From positions 14,332 to 78,331 of the forward strand of contig JANOQV010000230.1 of NCBI GenBank assembly GCA_031414955.1: a DNA stretch of 64,000 nt, in the 5' to 3' direction. Origin of the DNA: Pedosphaera sp. GTDB lineage: Bacteria; Verrucomicrobiota; Verrucomicrobiia; Limisphaerales; SIBH01. The notes below the pieces were generated by a model. The model worked only from the letters and a program-made list of their open reading frames with translations, was not told the DNA's origin and searched no databases. Both the position numbers and the translations under genes were made by a program. Of the stretch, positions 3,469-35,126 are shown one piece after another. Every line of letters starts with the position of its first letter. The stretch's first letter is position 1.

Positions 3469-3544
<76 letters not shown>

Positions 3545-24075: not shown

Positions 24076-27000
24076 CTACGGCAATATCACGCGGTAGAAG
24101 CGCGTGTTCGCAACGGGCGCGTTTGTGACCACCACGGTGCGGTTGCTCGGCGCGGCGCTGATGCTTTGCAGGTTCGTCCAGGCGCCGGCATCGGGCGTAG
24201 GCTGGTGCTGGAGGGTGTAGCTCTTGTTCGACACGGCATCGAAACGCAGGCGCGCGGCGTTCGCGGGCGTGAGGGAGACATTTAACCGGAGCACGCTGCC
24301 CGCCACCAGTGGGTTGGTGCCGGCGAGGTACTCCTGCAAGTTCGTCATCCCGTCGCCGTCATTGTCCAGGCCGGCATCGGCAGGGCTGAACTTGTTCAGG
24401 CTGTACAAATCCTCCCAAACATCGGGCATCCCGTCGCTGTCGGTATCAACGCTCCCGGCGCTGCCGGGCTGCGGCGTGGGCGCGGCGGCAACCCAGTTCG
24501 TGGGGTCGTTGCCGTAGCCGGTCTGGCTCACGCGTTGGAGCGAGAAGCCGAAGCCATCGGCGTTCGTCGCCCACGGCGTGGTGTCCGCGTAAATAATCTT
24601 CTCCACCAGAATGAACGGCACGAAGCCGGCGTCGTTGGCGGGCGGCAGTTGAGGCGCGTCCGGTCGTTGCAACTCCACGCCCTCGCTGCTGTTGTCCAGT
24701 TTACCGCTCCACGGGCCAAGAATGGTCAGGCTGTTAGTGATGCCGTAAGCCGCCTTGAAGGCTGCCAGTGAATTCGTATCGGCCACCGGATCAAATCCCA
24801 CCACCAGCAGTGTCCCGGTGGCGCCGATGCTGGCACCCGCCGGGAAATCAAAATCCACGCCGCCGCGCAGCCGCCAGCGATTCGTCGGGTACGCCGGATC
24901 GAACAGGTTCACCGCGCTGGCCGTGGTGTTCTTCACTTCAACGAATTCATCCCGCGTGTTGTCATTCGTGCCGAGGTCCGGCGGGTGATACATGATCTCG
25001 TTCACCACGACCGGCCCCACTTTGGGATAGGCATTCGCCAGGCCGGTGCCGGTGCGGAACTGCGCCACGCTCACCGGATTATCCACCCCAAATGTCCGCG
25101 CGCTCATCGCCACGAAGTCGTGATCACCCACGCTGCGGCGGTAGCGCCCCATGGACACGCCGTTGGCCGCCGCGTCGAACTTCACCTGGGCGCGATAGCC
25201 AGTCAGCACACCGTTGGTCGCCTGGGACAGATAGACTTCATCGCCATGCGCCGAACTGAGGGAGAAGGCCGAGCCGGGCACCGAGATGTCGTTGAACTGG
25301 GTTTCATAGAACACGCGGAAGCCGCCGGACGGAATGGTGATGGCGTTGGTAATCTGGTAGCGGCGCAGGTTGTTTTTCGAGTCGCTCAAGAACCAGCCGG
25401 CGATGTTTACACTGGCGACATTCGTGTTCTGGATTTCAATCGCGTCCTCCAGCGGCGGGTCGGTATGCGCCAGCACTTCGCTGATGACGACGTTGTTCAG
25501 CGGCAGCCAGTTCAAGTCGCCCTGGCTCACGCTGATCGAAAAGCTAGCGATGTTCGCCGCGCCATCGGGCAGCCGGCCTTGCGACACACCCACGGTCTGC
25601 ACGCCGAAGCTCACGGCGTCGAGCAGTGTGCCGCCGGGCTGCGACAGGCCGATGGCTTCGCCGCCGTTTGAGAGCTTGAAGTTGACGTGGTTTGCGCCGT
25701 TCTGCGGCGCGTTGTCCGCGTCGAACGTGCGGTAGGCATACGCGCCGATGCCGATGAAGGAGAGCTTCGGAATCAGATACAACATGCGCGTGGCCGGCGT
25801 GCCGAGCGTGTCCGAGAGCCAGTGATCGGCGAGGGCCACGGGGACGGGATTCCCGTTGAACAGCTCGAACCAGTCCTCGCCCGAGGCGGGATTCGCCATC
25901 CACTCGTTGATCTTCACGAGCGAAACATCGCCGAGATTTTGCGAGAGATTGGTCGCGCCCGGCGTGGGCACGGTCAGCGTCCAGTTCGTGCCGCCGGGCG
26001 CGCGGCCGATGGAAAAATCCACGGCCTGCAAACCAAACGTCACCGTGTCAAGCAGTCCGCCGGCGGGAGCAAACAGGTAGAGCGCGTCGCCCGTGTCCTT
26101 GAGTCCGAAGCCGGTGTTAGTCGCGGAGACAGGCGCGCTGGAGGAAAAGAACACGCGATGATAACCGCCCGCCGGCACCACCGAGCCGGGCGGAAACACC
26201 CAGCGACGCGGCAGGGCCACGTCGTCCGAGAGGCTGGAGTCGCCGAGGTCCACCGCGCTCACCGACGGGTTAAAGAACTCTACCCAGTCCGGCGTGGAAC
26301 CGTCGGGTTCCTCGACGTTCGAGTTGTTGGCGAGGACTTCGTTGAGGCGGACGCCGGCAGAGGCAGCGCTGTTGGTCGTGACGTCGAGCCGGATGCCCAT
26401 GAAAACATCCGCGCTGGTGGACGTGCCCTGATGCACTTCCACGGCAATCCAGTTGGTGCCGGCAAAAACATTCGTGAGGGGCAGCGTGAACGGGCCAAGT
26501 TCCAAGGGCGCGCCGGAATAATTTTGCGTGGCCAGTTGAGCATAGGTCACGGCACCGGCGGGCATGAAGTAGCGATAGGCTTCCTGCCCGTTCACATAGA
26601 CGATCACTCCGTCGTCAATGTAGTGCGTGAGGAGCAGGCTCGAATAAGCGGACGGAGGCGTGAACCGGGTGCGAAAGTAAAACGTGTTGCGGTTGACGTT
26701 GGTGATGAGCGTCGTGCGAATCGGCTCGGCAATCGAACCGCTGTTCAGCCTGGCCAGCACGCCCTGCCCTGACTCCCAGGTCGAATCATCGTAGTTCGTC
26801 GTGTTCCAAACCACGCCATCCAGGTTGCTCGACTGGTTGAACTGCCAGACCGCGCTGTAAGGAAGCACGGCCACCGTGCCCGAGCCGCCGCCGCCCGCCG
26901 GGCAGAGATTGCCCGCACCCGGACTCGGCGCGGCGAGGAAGACAAAATTGTTCGCGCCATTCGGGCAGCGGCCCTGCGAGACGTTTGGCGTCTGCGGGCC

Positions 27001-28488
27001 GTAGCTTACCGAGTCAATGACCGCGAGCGACGGATCGAACAGCGCGATCTCGCCGAGGTCGCTCGACAGCGAGAAGTTCAAATGATCCGCGCCCGCGCCG
27101 GTGTTCTCATCTGCGATCATGGCCACGAATGAATTCGACTGGATGAAGGTGAGCGGCGGCACGGGATGGCGCGTGGGCCAGCCGATCAGTTCGTCAGTGA
27201 AAAAGCAGCCGCCGAAATCCACGGGCAGCGCGAGCGGGTTGTAGAGTTCCACGAAATCCTCGGCGAAGGGCGGCGTGCCGGCGGTGAGCCATTCGTTGAT
27301 GCGCAGCGCGCCGCGGCTGCCGGTGGCGGCGGCGCTGTTCGCGCCAGGGAACGTGGGCGTGCAAAGTTTCCATTCGCCCGAACTGCCGAAGCGGCCCACG
27401 GACAAATCCGCGAGTTGCAAACCAAACACCACTGAGTCGAGCAACGCGCCGTTCGTGGCAAAGAGATACACGCCCTCGCCGCTCGCGCTCAGGCTGAAGC
27501 CGGTATGCAGCCCGCCGCTGCCGTCCTCGTTGTTCGCAAAGACGTGCAGGTAGCCGCCCGCTGCGAGCGTGGTGTTCGTGGGGAACGTGAACTTGTTCGG
27601 GATCAACGGGTCGTCCGTGAGCCGCAGTCCGCCGATGTTCACCGGCGAGCCGCCTTCGTTGAACAGTTCAATCACGTCGGGAAAAGTTCCGGCGTGATTC
27701 AGCGCGCTAACGTTCTGCGCCAGGACTTCGTTCAGGCGCACGGCCGGCGTTGCCGTGCTCACGATCCACGCGGCGGTAACCGTCGGCGAGTTCGTGCTCT
27801 GCCATGCGCCCGCCGCGCTCTTGCCGATCACAGACACCGTGTTCGTACTGTTATTCGCCAGGCTCGCGAGGGAAATAGCCGTGGCCACGGCGGTCTCCGC
27901 GCCATACGCGCCGTTGTTCAGTTTGAAGCGGTAGCTCACCACGTTCGACCCGCCGACGGTGAGCGTCGCGGTCGTGAACGGCGTGGGCGAGCGCGGCGTG
28001 CCGGTGACCGTCGCGGTGGGCGGCGGCGGATTTCCGGCGAAGTAGGTGTTGAGCAGGCCCTGCACGGTGCTGCGCCGCGTGTCCATCCATGTCCTCATCG
28101 TGTTGATGGTGCCGACGGGCATGTAGAAGCCGAGCGTCTGGGTGATGAGCGCGTCGTAGTTTGTCTTGGCAAACGTGGTGTCCAGCAGGCGCTGCAAAGT
28201 TTGGTAATACAACGGCTCAAACTCCGGCCAGTGCATGAAGTTGTTCATGGCCGTGCCCGATCCGGCCCCCGGCACCAGCGTGGCCGTGAAAAGGTTCGCG
28301 GAATTGGCGGCCATCGATCCGCCCTGTGACATCACGGTGTCGAGATCGTGATACACCAGATTGAAGCGCGGATCGTTGACGCCGCGATACATGAAGTAAT
28401 CGTCGTTGTAGCCGGAGTTCAAACCCGTCTCGTTGTTGCCCATCAGGTTCATGACCGCGAGGTGCGTGAGCCACTGCTCGATGTTCAC
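24076..28488 (-). CDS. 3' part of a lamin-tail-domain/CotH secreted protein (end of CotH domain, several LTDs, DxDGDG repeat, C-terminal domain)
   Basis: Repeated (I/L)NE(V/W/I)(L/M)A..DWxELxN LTD motifs; NDDYFMY..YHDLD CotH-like segment; DTDSDGMPDVWE..DGDGMTNLQEYLAGTNP. In frame with 28531-30219 across one TAA. Confidence 0.8.
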   Translation of the reverse strand: MNIEQWLTHLAVMNLMGNNETGLNSGYNDDYFMYRGVNDPRFNLVYHDLDTVMSQGGSMAANSANLFTATLVPGAGSGTAMNNFMHWPEFEPLYYQTLQRLLDTTFAKTNYDALITQTLGFYMPVGTINTMRTWMDTRRSTVQGLLNTYFAGNPPPPTATVTGTPRSPTPFTTATLTVGGSNVVSYRFKLNNGAYGAETAVATAISLASLANNSTNTVSVIGKSAAGAWQSTNSPTVTAAWIVSTATPAVRLNEVLAQNVSALNHAGTFPDVIELFNEGGSPVNIGGLRLTDDPLIPNKFTFPTNTTLAAGGYLHVFANNEDGSGGLHTGFSLSASGEGVYLFATNGALLDSVVFGLQLADLSVGRFGSSGEWKLCTPTFPGANSAAATGSRGALRINEWLTAGTPPFAEDFVELYNPLALPVDFGGCFFTDELIGWPTRHPVPPLTFIQSNSFVAMIADENTGAGADHLNFSLSSDLGEIALFDPSLAVIDSVSYGPQTPNVSQGRCPNGANNFVFLAAPSPGAGNLCPAGGGGSGTVAVLPYSAVWQFNQSSNLDGVVWNTTNYDDSTWESGQGVLARLNSGSIAEPIRTTLITNVNRNTFYFRTRFTPPSAYSSLLLTHYIDDGVIVYVNGQEAYRYFMPAGAVTYAQLATQNYSGAPLELGPFTLPLTNVFAGTNWIAVEVHQGTSTSADVFMGIRLDVTTNSAASAGVRLNEVLANNSNVEEPDGSTPDWVEFFNPSVSAVDLGDSSLSDDVALPRRWVFPPGSVVPAGGYHRVFFSSSAPVSATNTGFGLKDTGDALYLFAPAGGLLDTVTFGLQAVDFSIGRAPGGTNWTLTVPTPGATNLSQNLGDVSLVKINEWMANPASGEDWFELFNGNPVPVALADHWLSDTLGTPATRMLYLIPKLSFIGIGAYAYRTFDADNAPQNGANHVNFKLSNGGEAIGLSQPGGTLLDAVSFGVQTVGVSQGRLPDGAANIASFSISVSQGDLNWLPLNNVVISEVLAHTDPPLEDAIEIQNTNVASVNIAGWFLSDSKNNLRRYQITNAITIPSGGFRVFYETQFNDISVPGSAFSLSSAHGDEVYLSQATNGVLTGYRAQVKFDAAANGVSMGRYRRSVGDHDFVAMSARTFGVDNPVSVAQFRTGTGLANAYPKVGPVVVNEIMYHPPDLGTNDNTRDEFVEVKNTTASAVNLFDPAYPTNRWRLRGGVDFDFPAGASIGATGTLLVVGFDPVADTNSLAAFKAAYGITNSLTILGPWSGKLDNSSEGVELQRPDAPQLPPANDAGFVPFILVEKIIYADTTPWATNADGFGFSLQRVSQTGYGNDPTNWVAAAPTPQPGSAGSVDTDSDGMPDVWEDLYSLNKFSPADAGLDNDGDGMTNLQEYLAGTNPLVAGSVLRLNVSLTPANAARLRFDAVSNKSYTLQHQPTPDAGAWTNLQSISAAPSNRTVVVTNAPVANTRFYRVILP

Positions 28489-28530
28489 AGCGGCGCGCGC
28501 GCGCGCGCTGGGGAACAGGCCGGGCTGGTT

Positions 28531-30219
28531 TTAGCCCATCACATCGAGCATCGCGATCATGTCAGCCCAGTCGTTCTCGCTCGCGTTCGATTCCTTGAAG
28601 TAGGTGTTCTGATACGAACTCGGCGTGGTGCCGCGATAATCAAAATTCGGAGGCGTGATGTTCCGCTGCACCTTGTAAGCGTTGCCGCCGCTGTCGTTCG
28701 GGAAATGGTTTTCCGCCCAGTCGCCGCCAATGTCCTCGTTGGCGGCGTAGTGGTTGTTCGCCGGCGTGCCGCCCGGCCCCGCGCCACCGTTCACACGCAA
28801 CTGCGCCGCGAACGAATCCGATCCGACCGCGCCGGATTTTAGCGCGAGAATCGAGCCAAAATGCTGCGCCCACGGGTTGATCGCGTTCATGTTGATGCTG
28901 GGCCGGCCCCGCCAGGGCTGGTCGGAAGTAAAACCGATCCGGTAGTTGTGCGTGGACGAACTGCGGCTGCCGTTGCCGCGGTTCCGCACGGTGCAGAGGT
29001 AGCGCACCTCGACGCCCTGCGCCGTCACCCCGATGAAGGTGAGGTTGAACGCCGCATCGCTCTGCGGCGAACTGCTGAACATGGTGGCGAGTTCTGTGTA
29101 CTCCGACGGGGTGAGAATAATTTTGTGGAGCGGCGCGACGCCGGTGTAAGCCGTGTTGTCCACCTGGTAGAGCGCGTTCACGCTGAAACTGTTCCGATCC
29201 ATCACGGTCACACCGTCGGTGTTCACGGCGGGGCGCGGCCAGGTGTTGGTCTGGTTCGAGTCGTCCACGGCTTCGACGTAAAATTCCACGATGGCCTGGT
29301 TCGCCTGCGGCGGAATGCTCGCGGCCCACAGGCCGTCGCCTGCCGCGCCGTCGCTGTGCCCGCCGTCGTCAAACATCGTCGCGCTGGTGAAGGCGGGCGG
29401 AGCGCCGTTGTTCACGCGCCAGAACAGCCGCACGGCATAGACGGGCGTCTCGTCAATGACGCGCGCGGAAATCACCACCGTGTTCGTGGACTGCGGAATA
29501 AGCGGCGCGTGCCCGACATCCACGACGAGCGCGGGAGCATCGCCCGAGGCCACGGAGTTGCCCACGCCGGGCGTGCCGTTGACCGTGGTGCTGGCGGCCC
29601 AGTTCTGGCCGCGATCATTCGGCAACGCCGCGTTGACCAGTTCGAGCGAGCGACCCAGACCGTCGGCGCGCGCGAGCCACGTCCAGCCCTGGCAGCAACC
29701 ATCGACTAAGCCGCGCTGGCGGATGGCCCAGTCGCCTTCGTCGGCGTAGGTGAGATCATCAATGGTGTTCCCCGCCGCGTCCTCAAGCGTGAGACGGTCA
29801 CGGCCGTTGCTCAGGGAGTTCTCAAAATTCGTGTAGGTGCCGGAGGCGACGTTGGTGGTGCGGACGGTGAGGAAGCCAGCGACGAAGTTTGTCACGCCCG
29901 GATACTTGGTGGTGAAGCTGTTCGAGTGGGCCGCCACCACAAGATAACCCGCGGTTTTGATGACGGCATTGCTCGGAAACGTGAAGGCGATGCCCTTCGT
30001 AAAGCGCCAGCCGCCGAGGTTCACGTTCGTCGGCCCGGCGTTGTACATCTCCAGATACTCCTCGCGCGAATTCTCGGACGAGGGGTGGAACATGATCTCG
30101 TTAATCAGGATGTTCTGAGCGCGCGCGGGCAGCAGCAGTGCCGCCAGCAGCGCGAGCAGCGCCAGGAGCCAATTCGCCGGCTTAAAGCTGAGATCAGTGC
30201 GGAAAGAGTCTGTTGCCAT
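28531..30219 (-). CDS. 5' part of the same LTD/CotH protein (signal peptide, LTD, Ig-like region, start of CotH kinase domain)
   Basis: Signal-like LLALLALLAALLLPARA-Q; ILINEIMFHP LTD; RNRGNGSR CotH motif; ends at TAA 28533-28531 mid-domain. Confidence 0.8.
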   Translation of the reverse strand: MATDSFRTDLSFKPANWLLALLALLAALLLPARAQNILINEIMFHPSSENSREEYLEMYNAGPTNVNLGGWRFTKGIAFTFPSNAVIKTAGYLVVAAHSNSFTTKYPGVTNFVAGFLTVRTTNVASGTYTNFENSLSNGRDRLTLEDAAGNTIDDLTYADEGDWAIRQRGLVDGCCQGWTWLARADGLGRSLELVNAALPNDRGQNWAASTTVNGTPGVGNSVASGDAPALVVDVGHAPLIPQSTNTVVISARVIDETPVYAVRLFWRVNNGAPPAFTSATMFDDGGHSDGAAGDGLWAASIPPQANQAIVEFYVEAVDDSNQTNTWPRPAVNTDGVTVMDRNSFSVNALYQVDNTAYTGVAPLHKIILTPSEYTELATMFSSSPQSDAAFNLTFIGVTAQGVEVRYLCTVRNRGNGSRSSSTHNYRIGFTSDQPWRGRPSINMNAINPWAQHFGSILALKSGAVGSDSFAAQLRVNGGAGPGGTPANNHYAANEDIGGDWAENHFPNDSGGNAYKVQRNITPPNFDYRGTTPSSYQNTYFKESNASENDWADMIAMLDVMG

Positions 30220-30315: not shown

Positions 30316-33300
30316 TCAGGGCGCGATGGGCGTGACGACCTGATAGAACCGGAAGGGAAGTCCCGGGGTGTTGGTCACGTTGATCACCCGGTTGAAAACC
30401 GGTTCCAACGACACATCCTGCAACCGCAGCCACGATCCAGTGCTGAGAGAGTTGCGATACTGCACCGTGTAGCTCTTGTTCGAGATGGCCTGAAAGCTGA
30501 AGGTGTATTCACCGGCCGCCGATCCAAACGAGAAGAGCGCGAGCTTGCTGCCAAAGGATTGAGGGTCAGTCCCGGCGAGATACTCCTGGAGGTTGGTCAG
30601 ACCGTCGTTGTCATCATCGTCGCCCGCGTCGTTCACGAGCTTGTCCGTGCCATTCGCATCTTCCCAACTGTCCGGCATCCCGTCGCCGTCGGTGTCCGTG
30701 ACCACGGGACTCACCACGGTCCAGGCATCGGAAACGGTGGCGCTGTTGGTGCCCTGCCAGAAGCCGGCGGAATTCTTGCCGATGACCGACACGGTGTAGG
30801 TGCCGTTGGAAAGGCCGGACAGGGAGATGGGCACGGCGTTGGAGAACAAAGTGGCGGTAATGAGGAAGTCATTCGTCAGCGAAACTTCCCCGCTCCACGG
30901 GCCGTTGTTCAACTTCCACTTGTAGGCATACATGCCGGGACCGGCGACCTTGAGCATGGCCGAAGTGCTGGTCGTGATGGAGGGCGGCTCGCCCGAGATG
31001 GAAGCGCCACCGGGCACGAGCGCGCCACGATCCAGTCCGTTGGGGCCGGTGCCGATGGCGGGCGAACCCGGCAGCAAGGCGAGATTGCTCTTGATGTTCA
31101 AGTGCGTAATCCCGGTCTGCCAGTTGACGAACATCGGATTGTTGGTCGAGTTGCCGCCGAAGGTCATGTTCGTGCCCTGGATGATGTTGTCGTTCGCGGT
31201 CATGAACATGGTGCCGTTGGTGAAGACGATGAAGGGCGTGGTGCTGTGCAAGTCCCAGAGAATGTTGCCGTTCATGACGATGCCGCGCCCGCCGGGCACG
31301 CCGCGATGCGGCTCGCCGAACTGCACGTAAGCCGCGCGCGTGGCCGAGAACTGGTTGGTCTCGATGGTCACGACCGTGTTGTTCTCAAAGACCGCCGAAC
31401 CCATGTCCTTCAACAGCATGGCGTGATCGCAGTTGTAGAAAATGTTGCGCACCACCACGAGTTCCGATGTGCCGCTGCCCTCCCCGGTGGAGACGGCGTT
31501 GGCCGTGCTGGAGCGCACCGCGTCCTGATGCACGTTCAGGAAGATGTTGCCCTCGATGTGCGCGTCGGTGGAATCCAAATCCATGCAGTCGTCCACGGCG
31601 GCCAGAAACACATTGTCGATGAACTGCACGATGGCGCCGGGACGGTTGCCACCGGTGAAATCAACACTGTCGCTATAGCCGGTCGGTGCTCCGAAAATGT
31701 TGCCCTTGATCAGAGCGTAACCGTTCGCCGGCATGCTGCTGAAGTGGACCGGTTCGATGGTCTCCCCGCCAGGCACGTAGGAGTCGAGCAGCGTCAACGA
31801 ACTGCCCACGCAGTCAACCAACTGATCCACGGTGTTGGTCCACCAGAGGCTCCGCAGGTAAGCCGCCGTGTTATCGATGTCGATGTTCTTGCCCAAAATG
31901 CTGTCGAGGTCCGCGTAAGCAATGCGATGCGTGGAGCCGCCGCCCGTAAGGTTGATGCCGCCCCAACTCGTGGCACCGGTATTCAGACCGAAAAGCATGC
32001 GGCACTCCGGCGTGCCCTCGGCGAGGAGCAGACCATTGACCGTGAGGGAGAAGCCTTGGTTGAACAGCACCTGCGCGCACGGCTCGATGGTGAGAGTGGT
32101 TCCGACCGTCACGGTGACGGAACTGGTCACAATGATGGTGGTGCCCGCCGCCCAGATCGTGTTCACGGAAATCTGGCCGCCGACATAGATGACCGGAGCC
32201 TGACGCTGGCCGCTGGCCATGTTGGAGACGCGCGACAGCGCCACGTAGTTGGTGTGCTGCACGCGGTAATAATACTTCTGCCCAGGGATGGCCGACTCAT
32301 CGACGTGATTGGTCGCCTCGGCCGGAAGCTGGGCGATGACCGCCCAGTTCACCGCGTCGGTGGAGCGATGCACCAGCACACCCTCTTCGTTCTGCGAATC
32401 GTCCGTCCACTTCACGACCGGCGCGTTGGTGCCGGAGGAAATCACGGCCACGGCCAAGGGCGGCATCGGGATGCCGCCGAGCGGATAGGTGATGCCCATC
32501 TTCGCGCCGTCGCGTCCGCCGGTCAGCGCGGGCGAACCGGCTTGCAGGCGGTAATCACGCGCCGCCGGATTCACGAAGAGCGGATCAACATTGATGTTGC
32601 CGTCGCCCGGCCAGTTGGTGTTTCCGAAGATGTTGTAGTCGGCGAACAACTGGCTGCCGTTGGCCAGGCCGATGGCCGCGATATTGTTCCACACGATGTT
32701 GTTGTAGGAATTGGTGGTGATGCCGCCGCCGGTCGGCGAGGCCGGATTGACCTTGTTGTAGTTGGTCAAGCCGGAGTCGTTCCCGACAATGGTGCAGTTG
32801 CGCACGCTCACATCGCAGAGCGACTTGGACATCACTCCGGCGTTGCAGGCGTAGATCAAACAGTTGCTCACGATAATGCCGTGGGAAGAGCCGCCGTCGC
32901 CCACGGACACACCCTTGTCGAACGGAAAATCCCACATGATGCAGTTCTCGATGCGCGTGTCGGTGGAGCCGGGAAGGACGCCGGGGCCAATGTCCACGGC
33001 GTCAGCATTGCCGCGGTTGCCGTGGCGATAGGTGCAGTTGCGCGTGTATGATCCGGGCTGCGCGGCATCGAAATCCAGCGCGTCGCCTTCCAGCAGTTCG
33101 AACATGGATTGTTCGACCTGGATGACGCCGTCCCGCACCAGACATTCCCAATAGGAATAAATATGGGCGCGACGCACCTCGAAGAGGCTGGCGAAGCTGG
33201 ACATCATGATGGGCCGGCCGGTCGTACCCGCGCCCGCGCCGGGATCAAAGTCATGAATCGCGGTGTCCTCGATCAACCCATAAGCCCCGGTGGTGGCGTT

Positions 33301-34539
33301 CACCTGCGTGCGGGCGATGTCGGCGAAATGAAGTTCCAAGGTGGAGTTCGTGCCCGTGGCCGAGAGCGGCCCCCAGGTGCCGCTCGAAGTCACGTCGATG
33401 GTGAAAAAGACATTCTGCTCGAACGTCCCGTGGGCATAAATCCGCCCGCCGCTCTGCGTCACGATCGACGCACCCGGATTCACCAACACCACCGCCCCAT
33501 TGGCCACCTCCAGAGTCACGTTCGTGGGCACGATCACACTGCCGGTCACATGCAGGATGGTACCCGGATTCGAGGCCAGCACGCTGGCCCCCAACGTCCC
33601 GCTGATGGTGGTCCGTGAGGTCTCGCGAATGATGTTCTGAATACGGTTGGAAAGAAGGTTGCCTGCGGAATCCAGGGCCGCGATGAAAAAGCGGCTGTAG
33701 CCCGGAGCCAGCGCCACGGTGTTGGTCCAGGTTCCGGTGGCCGGATTGAAACTGGATTCATTCCCATTGATCGTCACCCGCGTCGCCCCGGCGATGGTGT
33801 TCGAGCCCGAGAGAGTGACCGAGCTGTCCGTGGTGAGCGCATAAATCCCGTTGTTGGGAATGGCCGCTCCATTCGTCGGCGCGCTCACGGAGAGATCCGG
33901 CACCAGGATTAAATCAGAACTATTCAACGTGCCGTTCAATCCCAGGATGGCCAGCGTATGGTCACCAAGATCCAGTCGTGAACCGATGGCGCCAAGATCC
34001 CACGTCACCGCCGGCAGGCCGCTGGAGCCGAGGGAGGATTCGTGATTGGCGGTCGCCAGCGCCGTGTTGGTCGGTTCATTGCCCGCCGCGCCGGGCGCAT
34101 TCGTGCGGCAAAGTTCCACGCCATCGAGATAAGCCACGAAACCGTCGTCCCAATCCATCCGCAGCAACAAGTGCAGATTCGTATCGAAGCTGCTGTCGAC
34201 CGTGAACACATGGCGCATATAGAGCGTGCGATACGAGTTCTGCATGTCATTCAGGATCGTCTTGCAGTTATTCGTCTCCGCCGCCGTGTCGGCGGAATAA
34301 CCAATGCCGCCCGGCCCGGTCAGCCATTGCCCGCCCAGCGACGCATCGGAGCTAGTTTGCCAGCCGAGGACCGGCGCATTAGTCCCCTTGTGATAACGCC
34401 ACACATCACCTCGGTTCACCACGGGAGTGGGCGCGGTCGGCGGTGTCCCCACCTGAACGGTGAGATGCTGGCCGTGGGCCGAGATCAATCCAAGAACGCC
34501 GGCCAAAGCCGGCAACGTCAGACGTGCGATTCGAAACAT
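30316..34539 (-). CDS. Large secreted protein with right-handed parallel beta-helix repeats, FN3-like domain and DxDGDG/C-terminal domain
   Basis: Signal peptide MFRIARL...AHG; beta-helix motifs (GDALDFD, DAVDIG, DKGVSVG, DDCMDLDSTD); DPLFVN...DYRLQAGSPA; FN3-like W.DDS.NE.G..YYYRV; DTDGDGMPDSWE. Confidence 0.8.
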   Translation of the reverse strand: MFRIARLTLPALAGVLGLISAHGQHLTVQVGTPPTAPTPVVNRGDVWRYHKGTNAPVLGWQTSSDASLGGQWLTGPGGIGYSADTAAETNNCKTILNDMQNSYRTLYMRHVFTVDSSFDTNLHLLLRMDWDDGFVAYLDGVELCRTNAPGAAGNEPTNTALATANHESSLGSSGLPAVTWDLGAIGSRLDLGDHTLAILGLNGTLNSSDLILVPDLSVSAPTNGAAIPNNGIYALTTDSSVTLSGSNTIAGATRVTINGNESSFNPATGTWTNTVALAPGYSRFFIAALDSAGNLLSNRIQNIIRETSRTTISGTLGASVLASNPGTILHVTGSVIVPTNVTLEVANGAVVLVNPGASIVTQSGGRIYAHGTFEQNVFFTIDVTSSGTWGPLSATGTNSTLELHFADIARTQVNATTGAYGLIEDTAIHDFDPGAGAGTTGRPIMMSSFASLFEVRRAHIYSYWECLVRDGVIQVEQSMFELLEGDALDFDAAQPGSYTRNCTYRHGNRGNADAVDIGPGVLPGSTDTRIENCIMWDFPFDKGVSVGDGGSSHGIIVSNCLIYACNAGVMSKSLCDVSVRNCTIVGNDSGLTNYNKVNPASPTGGGITTNSYNNIVWNNIAAIGLANGSQLFADYNIFGNTNWPGDGNINVDPLFVNPAARDYRLQAGSPALTGGRDGAKMGITYPLGGIPMPPLAVAVISSGTNAPVVKWTDDSQNEEGVLVHRSTDAVNWAVIAQLPAEATNHVDESAIPGQKYYYRVQHTNYVALSRVSNMASGQRQAPVIYVGGQISVNTIWAAGTTIIVTSSVTVTVGTTLTIEPCAQVLFNQGFSLTVNGLLLAEGTPECRMLFGLNTGATSWGGINLTGGGSTHRIAYADLDSILGKNIDIDNTAAYLRSLWWTNTVDQLVDCVGSSLTLLDSYVPGGETIEPVHFSSMPANGYALIKGNIFGAPTGYSDSVDFTGGNRPGAIVQFIDNVFLAAVDDCMDLDSTDAHIEGNIFLNVHQDAVRSSTANAVSTGEGSGTSELVVVRNIFYNCDHAMLLKDMGSAVFENNTVVTIETNQFSATRAAYVQFGEPHRGVPGGRGIVMNGNILWDLHSTTPFIVFTNGTMFMTANDNIIQGTNMTFGGNSTNNPMFVNWQTGITHLNIKSNLALLPGSPAIGTGPNGLDRGALVPGGASISGEPPSITTSTSAMLKVAGPGMYAYKWKLNNGPWSGEVSLTNDFLITATLFSNAVPISLSGLSNGTYTVSVIGKNSAGFWQGTNSATVSDAWTVVSPVVTDTDGDGMPDSWEDANGTDKLVNDAGDDDDNDGLTNLQEYLAGTDPQSFGSKLALFSFGSAAGEYTFSFQAISNKSYTVQYRNSLSTGSWLRLQDVSLEPVFNRVINVTNTPGLPFRFYQVVTPIAP

Positions 34540-34643: not shown

Positions 34644-34706
34644 TGGTGGGTTGGCAGGGACTCGAACCCTGGACCAACCCCGAAAAGGTTCGGGGCTGCT
34701 CTAACC
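34644..34706 (-). repeat. Partial tRNA-Lys copy (pseudo-tRNA) with replaced anticodon arm
   Basis: 34644-34677 identical to 34978-35011 (34 bp, variable loop to CCA); upstream GGTTAGAGCAG matches the tRNA D-arm; anticodon arm replaced by GCCCCGAA-CCTT-TTCGGGGT. Confidence 0.9.
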
Positions 34707-34964
34707 ATCCACCGCCTCAGCGCGCTGTTGAAGCAGGAAGATGGCGAGTTGTGGGTTTTTCTTGCGCTTGAGTTCACGCTCCACGGTACGGGCCTCTGAC
34801 AAACTCGCGGTCTCCCAGGAGACGACCAATTCAAGATTCTGACCCAACCGCGCCGTGGTGTGGGTTTGTCCGCGGCGATGTTCCTCCAACCGGCGCGCGA
34901 GGTCGCTCGTCGAGCCGATGTAGTGCCGGCCGGAATCGCCGCGCAAAATATAGACCCAGGCCAT
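34701..34964 (-). CDS. Small stand-alone GIY-YIG nuclease family protein
   Basis: 87 aa; WVYIL...HYIGST.DL.RRL.EH..G, EAR.VERELKRKK; putative catalytic Tyr/Arg/Glu present. Confidence 0.9.
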   Translation of the reverse strand: MAWVYILRGDSGRHYIGSTSDLARRLEEHRRGQTHTTARLGQNLELVVSWETASLSEARTVERELKRKKNPQLAIFLLQQRAEAVDG

Positions 34965-34977
34965 TTGCTGGAAAAAG

Positions 34978-35053
34978 TGGTGGGTTGGCAGGGACTCGAA
35001 CCCTGGACCAATGCCTTAAAAGGGCACTGCTCTACCAACTGAGCTACCAACCC
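34978..35053 (-). tRNA. tRNA-Lys(TTT)
   Basis: 76-nt GGGTTGGTAGCTCAGTTGGTAGAGCAGTGCCCTTTTAAGGCATTGGTCCAGGGTTCGAGTCCCTGCCAACCCACCA; loop CT-TTT-AA. Confidence 0.97.
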
Positions 35054-35068
35054 ATCCGAGGGCCGCGG

Positions 35069-35097
35069 AAGCTAATCGAGAGGTTTTGGGGTCGCAA
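35069..35097 (-). promoter_or_regulatory. Sigma70-type promoter of tRNA-Lys(TTT)
   Basis: TTGCGA-N17-TAGCTT, ending 15 nt upstream of the tRNA, the same distance as for the other tRNA. Confidence 0.55.
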
Positions 35098-35126
35098 GAG
35101 ATATTCCCGGCGCGAATCACGCGCCA

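Follow-up and report, generated by a model that had tools for sequence, protein, structure and literature searches.

GIY-YIG enzymes act by hydrolysis and form no covalent intermediate, whereas the RAYT/REP and IS200/IS605 systems use HUH tyrosine transposases with covalent intermediates. SsnA, a GIY-YIG protein of 94 aa, binds a hairpin in single-stranded DNA whose sequence is required, and cuts a few bases 5' of it; as described, it is inactive on double-stranded DNA and on RNA, and does not bind RNA (PMC11893778). The double-stranded site of 27 bp at which SegB cuts contains a T-loop motif, and the enzyme homes between phages (PMC2330249). Stand-alone prokaryotic Slx1-like/UPF0213 proteins are regarded as minimal ancestral nucleases whose role is unknown (PMC1564403).

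Here we describe a locus in the window (the whole stretch of 64,000 nucleotides that was analysed), where a small GIY-YIG gene follows a tRNA gene and precedes a second tRNA piece that carries a hairpin in place of its anticodon arm. Comparison with relatives indicates that the element is real and widespread in Verrucomicrobia. It belongs among the pairs of a hairpin and a small nuclease, and a contrast of empty and filled loci documents replacement with unusual clarity.

The locus in the window

The earlier note had read the minus strand as an intact tRNA-Lys(TTT), 13 nt, an 87-aa GIY-YIG open reading frame and a second tRNA piece, and coordinates, ARAGORN, Rfam and Pfam agree with this layout (Table 1). 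It was equally right about the 34-bp perfect 3' end through CCA, about the 334 bp that separate the repeats, and about the TAG stop of the open reading frame, which is the TAG within TAGAGCAG. Two other statements hold in part. The anticodon arm is indeed swapped for a hairpin, but the swap is confined to tRNA positions 28-42 (15 nt out, 18 nt in), G27 and T43 being retained and closing the new stem as a G.T pair. Likewise, a remnant of the 3' side of the D-arm is present, but the contiguous 5' match amounts to 8 nt since GGTAG of the tRNA corresponds to GGTTAG in the copy.

Table 1. The element, its target and the adjoining host DNA in the window.
Feature	Position	Strand	Tool or match
Host 5' flank of tRNA, outside the element	35054..35111	-	85-90% identical to empty sites, five same-genus genomes
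Target: intact host tRNA-Lys(TTT) gene, CCA encoded	35053-34978	-	ARAGORN; Rfam tRNA, 75.2 bits
Anticodon arm, tRNA positions 28-42, 15 nt swapped for the hairpin in the copy	35012..35026	-	
334-bp unit: tRNA 3' end, spacer, nuclease gene, AGAGCAG and hairpin	34678..35011	-	
13-nt T-rich spacer between CCA and ATG	34965..34977	-	
87-aa single-domain GIY-YIG nuclease gene	34964-34701	-	
D-arm remnant TAGAGCAG, overlapping the nuclease stop codon	34696..34703	-	
18-nt element hairpin CCCCGAACCTTTTCGGGG	34678..34695	-	
34-nt copy of tRNA 3' end, positions 43-76 through CCA, identical	34677-34644	-	

In the intact tRNA, CAG and TTG close the anticodon arm and extend its stem in single-stranded DNA. 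The window hairpin CCCCGAACCTTTTCGGGG, to be compared with CCCCGAAAGCTTTCGGGG as the commonest form in the family, is beyond chance (z -5.5; 0 of 200 shuffles). The spacer shows no Shine-Dalgarno-like run and is unlike the flank typical of the genus, the host 5' flank is without an upstream hairpin scar, and a promoter and terminator scan at the element gave nothing convincing, the single terminator-like site lying at chance level. No integrase or other mobility gene was found between the repeats or among the adjoining genes scanned, which is consistent with what had been noted for integrases; the Pfam scan for a HUH (Y1) transposase returned GIY-YIG and T5orf172 matches only. The neighbours are a SNF2 helicase gene upstream and a gene for a large TSP3-repeat protein downstream. 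The intact copy is the single tRNA-Lys(TTT) gene in the ARAGORN list for the assembly (6.5 Mb, 5.8% contamination), in which the nuclease gene has no close paralogue. The hairpin-swapped copy is mis-called as 'tRNA-Glu' by ARAGORN and gives no match to the Rfam tRNA model.

A 360-nt contig spanning 34648-35007 with 0 differences was recovered from two samples of one study, at depths close to those of the flank (12.4 against 15.4, and 7.3 against 7.2); one of these samples may be the source of the window DNA. These data consist of contigs, none of those listed covering the full stretch, and they give no reliable excision or circle joint for the element; RNA runs contained a mere 0.04 of the sequence words; a 342-nt 'skip' joint from runs X3 and X4 was set aside as the tRNA of another organism (8 foreign letters, a 30-nt side). 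Misassembly of the locus is very unlikely given the matching layout in dozens of independent assemblies.

Elsewhere in the window, a tRNA-Lys(CTT) gene (3469-3544, minus strand) has AGAGCAG..TTGGT flanks as in the targets, yet no element or scar lies nearby. Adjacent open reading frames of 562 and 1470 aa (24076-30219, minus strand) look like one large secreted gene with a stop near 28531, and resemble in make-up the gene at 30316-34503. On another contig of the same assembly (G000 C221:370-2479), seven tRNA genes are clustered on a short stretch away from the main tRNA set; this cluster may be a mobile tRNA array.

A family of elements at tRNA genes

Eighty loci from 202 confirmed relatives were scored by script together with the window locus, and the complete layout was found in 54 of these 81: an intact tRNA, an 80-90-aa GIY-YIG gene, AGAGCAG, an 18-nt CCCCG..CGGGG hairpin and a copy of the local tRNA's 3' end. 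The complete loci comprise 31 at tRNA-Lys(TTT), 21 at CAT-anticodon tRNAs (Met or Ile2, pooled) and two at tRNA-Lys(CTT). Among the remaining 27, eight have an upstream tRNA without a scored copy, eight a downstream tRNA and 11 no called tRNA; inspection by eye identified several of these as degenerate or truncated members. Homologues behind tRNAs with a hairpin-swapped copy had been predicted, and they exist, but the targets of the close clade are restricted to AGAGCAG..TTGGT tRNAs instead of being diverse. The target consensus is AGAGCAG-N4-CTYWTAA-N4-TTGGT with a G27.T43 pair, and in all targets CAG and TTG lengthen the anticodon stem in single-stranded DNA. One of the two readings offered in the earlier note linked the nuclease to the DNA of anticodon arms and took the hairpin for its end signal; that reading fits these comparative data.

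The hairpin is almost constant across loci while anticodon stems vary, and the 3' copy tracks the local tRNA variant, differing from it at 39 of 1980 nt over 66 pairs, which come from 65 of 93 loci; the match between tRNA and copy extends beyond the CCA position into the flank in 20 of the 66. Units of about 305-335 bp recur at three tRNA types without an integrase inside, and the tandem arrays that had been suggested as a check were found, their units (305-333 bp) being 88-99% identical. An intact anticodon arm is retained beside the element in 54/54 scripted loci, and every tRNA-site product examined that has enough flanking DNA and a called tRNA adjoins an intact copy. The intact target next to an element seems to get attacked again. 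In 7 of 11 loci examined, mostly of Patescibacteria type, the layout is mirrored: a tRNA 5' piece comes first, followed by a CCCCG hairpin, the nuclease and the intact tRNA.

Other arrangements were encountered among more distant genes. Distant GIY-YIG subfamilies lie behind a second, initiator-like CAT tRNA (L152-L154, L156, L158), where a hairpin ATCCCG..CGGGAT replaces the 3' side of the anticodon stem and the variable loop, and where the duplication can take in the terminator. Another subfamily lies behind tRNA-Gly(GCC), where part of the arm is likewise replaced by a hairpin unlike that of the element (L155), and a distant GIY-YIG gene occurs in five tandem copies with a spacing of ~320 bp (G690:C1:377594-379069). 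Small actinobacterial GIY-YIG genes (L073, L078, L080) sit between arrays of other palindromic repeats and not at tRNAs, and form another nuclease/repeat pair. At L312, L326 and L351 the hairpin stands directly at the tRNA 3' end (tRNA-Ala, CAT tRNAs) and the anticodon arm is not replaced.

Upstream scars and an empty/filled pair

Scars 5' of the intact tRNA were found in 35 of 71 element loci with enough flank, as compared to 1 of 20 empty loci. Such a scar begins with 20-27 of the 27 nt of the tRNA 5' half; the hairpin comes next, then 3-19 nt from the 3' side, and finally a spacer with a median length of 38 nt. Scars sometimes occur in tandem, and some stand without any nuclease gene. Constant local copies of the host promoter were considered for the spacers and rejected, as the spacers match their own 5' flank (z >3) in only 8 of 36 cases. 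They often resemble spacers of other genomes, and these two observations suggest that the spacers are either foreign or old. Together with the homology on both sides of the swapped arm, the upstream scars support the contention that the duplication is not a plain att scar.

Empty sites, which had likewise been proposed as a check, occur in relatives, and one empty locus (L328) can be set against a filled one (L019), the flanks of the two being 87% identical over 1.4-1.5 kb on each side. Their alignment breaks after AGAGCAG and restarts at TTGGT, so that exactly 15 nt correspond to 411 nt. The 411-nt insert reads hairpin-spacer-tRNA-nuclease-hairpin and carries an intact tRNA. One insertion or two precise deletions separate the two loci; either would yield the pair.

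Solo hairpins

The earlier note tied the hairpin swap to the element, whereas comparison of sites suggests that the hairpin also moves alone. The genome of the window holds five solo hairpins, two of them on contig C11 and one apiece on C3, C53 and C119. Every one stands where a paralogous sequence in the same assembly has ~6-14 nt, the flanking AR and CT/TT being mostly already present in that sequence. Close paralogues exist for three distinct contexts, and in two of these, which we take from their translations to be protease-like and repeat-like, the swapped piece is a stem-loop. Replaced segments are closed by AR..YT and are often stem-loops, at tRNA anticodon arms and solo sites alike. 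These solo hairpins (G000 C11:1-12000, C53:4100-6400, C3:16600, C119:19300) lie amid degenerate gene fragments and other repeats, mosaic regions that may be repair or template-switch hotspots.

A hairpin-first sample of metagenomes gave 85 hairpins in 80 loci, scored by script as 59 solo, 10 complete elements, 10 upstream scars and six other tRNA-like; at least four of those scored as solo are tRNA-linked by eye, two of them at tRNA-Gln(TTG). The unconstrained base at -3 is C in 44 of 58. Solo hairpins at L353, L354, L365, L405 and L422 lie within another palindromic repeat (TGTAGGGCG..CGCCCTACA type), as if loop-swapped. Hairpins apart from the nuclease gene were found in 7 of 10 carriers and in 31 of 241 other genomes (Fisher p 9e-5, kin not being independent), the reversed control pattern in 9 of 251 genomes. 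The 31 genomes have hairpins and no nuclease by this query, one of them (G445) having seven, and the solo hairpin loops in the window's genome differ from the loop of the resident element; parentage from the resident element is thus not direct. The 5.8% contamination of the assembly also speaks against direct parentage.

The nuclease

The 87-aa protein matches Pfam GIY-YIG (PF01541; E 3.4e-12, 46.9 bits against a cut-off of 22.6) with Y5, Y15, G17, R25, H29 and E62 intact, and catalytic residues are retained in 49-50 of 50 sequences. The best PDB match both by sequence (E 2.4e-19) and by fold is 1zg2, which together with 1ywl is closest to the protein; it belongs to the stand-alone UPF0213/Slx1-like GIY-YIG branch. 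No DNA-binding domain was found in it, and the NCBIfam scan gave only a sub-threshold match, to a group I intron endonuclease. Across 50 coding sequences, the median dN/dS is 0.19 over 33 unsaturated pairs, none above 1, which suggests that the gene is under purifying selection. The close clade forms one branch (SH-aLRT 99; 92/93 in a second tree), and the tree clusters by target tRNA, with four changes among the Lys/Met rows. The nearest homologues are records titled Verrucomicrobia, and a search of viral contigs with a single protein returned no relative.

Distribution

Nuclease and hairpin are absent from 13 of 13 same-family genomes (57-96% complete), and of 20 fetched relatives none carries a nuclease gene behind its tRNA-Lys(TTT). 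The 5' flank of tRNA-Lys(TTT) in genus relatives is like that of the window, and their CCA is mostly followed by ttt. The copy at 34644..34677 is probably the host's original tRNA 3' end, as the ttt flank after it resembles the empty sites of the genus; with family and relatives empty and genus flanks matching on both sides of the unit, the element was probably gained in the lineage of the window, leaving that original end downstream. As a separate matter, the DNA 3' of tRNA-Lys(TTT) differs in every relative (L111-L130) and none matches the downstream gene of the window; the region looks like an integration hotspot independent of the element.

Of 251 genomes in the order, 15 have a match, 10 being of the window's type by eye, and the end motif is present in 9 of 401 genomes of the phylum, in three cases not at a tRNA. 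In one family (f37), 62 of 121 genomes match, patchily within genera and often as fragments; the tally includes two unpublished genomes, G662 and G769, neither of which matches. A tRNA-first sample of 29 loci from this family yielded four complete elements, one fragment and three loci with upstream scars, the upstream region of one locus (L350) being uninformative. Within-genus presence is patchy (for instance 2/12, 7/12 and 8/12), and hairpin-bearing genomes amount to about 1 in 6, with few copies each. Patchy, amplified and decaying but selected: such a pattern would be the signature of a selfish element.

How the element may spread

The reading that we favour, and consider probable, is that of a minimal selfish element whose GIY-YIG nuclease is a hairpin-specific, Ssn/NTS-like nickase of single-stranded DNA, its cuts giving the host's repair machinery the opportunity to put the hairpin in place of stem-loops. 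On the model of SsnA, the protein would bind the hairpin in single-stranded DNA, at a replication fork or in incoming DNA, and nick beside it. Host repair would then pair the hairpin-bearing DNA with a target through short shared flanks, and template switching would copy the hairpin in; as GIY-YIG enzymes form no covalent intermediate, every joining step must be the host's. The nuclease gene accompanies the hairpin on the 3' side. A switch on the 3' side would copy hairpin and nuclease gene and duplicate the tRNA 3' end, as in the window, a switch on the 5' side would leave an upstream scar without the gene, and both switches would produce a hairpin-to-hairpin insert with its own tRNA. Since plain replacement would kill an essential tRNA, only outcomes with a spare intact copy would survive. 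Transcription that starts at the tRNA promoter and reads through may serve to express the nuclease gene. Set against this reading is the tRNA-Lys(CTT) of the window, which has equal flanks and remains empty. Moreover, much of the pattern may be inherited and not reflect recent movement, considering that the tree clusters by target tRNA and that scar spacers are shared between genomes. More tentatively, and with doubts that outweigh our confidence, the unit could be an autonomous element of ~330 bp with no recombinase, transposase or reverse transcriptase, in which an 87-aa nuclease causes its hairpin to overwrite resident single-stranded stem-loops, the host supplying the template switching. 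Such an element would dock at the anticodon arms of tRNA genes and could move from hairpin to hairpin as a cassette, perhaps via a circle, with its own replacement tRNA and promoter; in Verrucomicrobia and Patescibacteria, it would also give rise to REP-like palindromes and to tRNA pseudogenes.

A homing-type nuclease (SegB/mORF-like) would instead make its cut in the double-stranded DNA of an empty tRNA gene, close to the anticodon arm; the filled allele would then repair the break with the duplicated tRNA end as homology arm, the hairpin merely marking or protecting the cut site. The layout is like that reported for mitochondrial mobile endonuclease ORFs (mORFs) with a duplicated gene end (PMC3630166), SegB is reported to recognise tRNA sequence (PMC2330249), the targets share one sequence, and the recurrence of scars and arrays suggests that the intact tRNA has been attacked more than once. 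Nevertheless, homing destroys its target, which here stays intact beside the element; the 87-aa protein has no DNA-binding domain, the hairpin is conserved while anticodon stems vary, solo copies make up most of the hairpin-first sample (59/85 by script), and no relative was found in viral contigs, all of which make homing unlikely. Less likely again is a host-useful and mostly inherited hairpin-specific nuclease, limiting for example the uptake of foreign DNA like SsnA, parked behind a tRNA promoter, with swaps and duplications as by-products or the work of another agent. Purifying selection, the matches in 62 of 121 genomes of f37, clades that follow the target tRNA and shared scar spacers are in keeping with such a role; the patchiness within genera, the many fragments and the absence from all 13 family relatives are not, and few hairpin copies in about one genome in six are too few for a filter.

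An RNA-level role, in which a tRNA-like RNA ending in CCA either guides how the nuclease mRNA is processed or counteracts an anticodon nuclease as a decoy antitoxin, is very improbable. The gene does lie on the strand of the tRNA after a 13-nt gap, and in the window the hairpin and variable loop read GGGTTGG, which can pair with the acceptor 3' strand, as 7/7 pairs in 30 of 34 Lys(TTT) loci; there is also a weak mascRNA-menRNA match (E 0.0044, below gathering), and the T-arm side is better preserved than the acceptor strand. This mini-helix nonetheless drops to 3/7 pairs in 21 of 30 CAT loci and was rejected as a general mimic. The true acceptor 5' strand is gone, leaving at most 5/7 cognate pairs in all 66 copies, 29 of the 39 mismatches fall within the acceptor strand (an ungapped count, inflated by slips in C runs), and the shared CCA is missing in 36 of 66. 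Upstream scars, solo hairpins and the mirror layout yield no such RNA, and SsnA is reported to bind none (PMC11893778). A tRNA or tRNA mimic, for which an acceptor stem and a CCA end were sought, was discarded, the Rfam tRNA model also missing the copy, as was a functional overlap of stop codon and D-arm, seen in 25 of 66 (11 starts not found). The tRNA-like RNA that the earlier note had offered as its alternative fails on these grounds. Finally, a remnant of a larger integrase island, or a misassembly, is scarcely credible. Each relative examined does have different DNA behind tRNA-Lys(TTT), as would be expected of an integration hotspot, and the whole stretch is spanned by no listed contig; on the other hand, the ~305-335-bp unit recurs at three tRNA types without an integrase, and an att scar accounts for neither the hairpin swap nor the upstream scars. 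The findings that the earlier note had named as telling against its reading came out the other way: homologues do adjoin a tRNA or pseudo-tRNA, no integrase island was found, and the junction contig is present in two samples.

Significance

A hairpin-specific nickase that exploits host repair, as favoured above, would provide a concrete candidate activity and substrate for the many genes that are annotated as 'GIY-YIG family protein' and whose role is unknown, and each subfamily may supply a new sequence-specific nuclease for single-stranded DNA. The element bears on the open question of whether Ssn-like nuclease/hairpin pairs are mobile elements, and would rank among the smallest autonomous elements described. 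Its empty and filled sites also provide evidence on the origin of short bacterial palindromes, pointing to replacement of resident stem-loops and not to simple insertion. In annotation, hairpin-swapped copies get mis-called as tRNAs, 'tRNA-Glu' in the present case.

Comparison with known systems

The hairpin/GIY-YIG tRNA element is apparently undescribed so far, as the earlier note had surmised: no description was found in the open literature. Integrase islands (attL/attR) differ in having an integrase and a plain contiguous 3' duplication, both of which the element lacks. Like RAYT/REP and IS200/IS605 (see PMC11893778), it combines a small enzyme with a hairpin and has solo hairpin copies across the genome; its enzyme, however, is a GIY-YIG hydrolase, and no HUH (Y1) transposase was found. 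UPF0213/Slx1-like proteins (PDB 1zg2, 1ywl) are the closest matches to the nuclease in sequence and fold, although the account consulted gives them no link to tRNA genes or hairpins (PMC1564403).

Phage T4 SegB is likewise encoded by a free-standing GIY-YIG gene among tRNA genes and spreads selfishly, but no tRNA duplication or hairpin is mentioned for it in the text consulted (PMC2330249). The mORFs, for instance that of Allomyces atp6, offer a closer layout, with an endonuclease ORF near a gene end, the intact gene before it and the native end displaced behind (PMC3630166). An inserted ORF, a duplicated gene end and empty alleles are all found here too; unlike in mORFs, the target is a bacterial tRNA gene, a conserved hairpin marks the junction, the original target survives and scars occur on both sides. 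Destruction of the target and failure to recognise the own element, as expected of homing, are not what is seen, the arm being intact in 54/54 loci and the element hairpin conserved.

The likeness to Ssn/NTS (cd10448; Chenal et al., 2025, PMC11893778) lies in a single-domain GIY-YIG protein of <100 aa whose gene adjoins a conserved DNA hairpin, solo copies of which occur as well; here, too, a small gene for a lone GIY-YIG domain has a conserved hairpin repeat as its neighbour. The word 'tRNA' is absent from the main text of that report, and a term search of 12 of its 14 supplements gave no link to tRNA genes (PMC11893778). The present element, in contrast, is tied to tRNA genes, replaces resident sequence, duplicates its target and has few copies per genome. 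Two GIY-YIG proteins near NTS motifs, taken as proxies and not SsnA itself, align with the nuclease over 30-39 aa (E 1e-7 and 2e-5) and fall on a separate branch (99/97, with a long-branch warning). As the SRM pattern fits 0 of 132 element hairpin contexts (73 of 80 NTS control loci) and the proxies sit on another branch, we do not class the nuclease as Ssn. By analogy, it plausibly works like Ssn/NTS, and the hairpin-to-hairpin composite of the element resembles NTS-ssnA-NTS, which its authors liken to an insertion sequence (PMC11893778).
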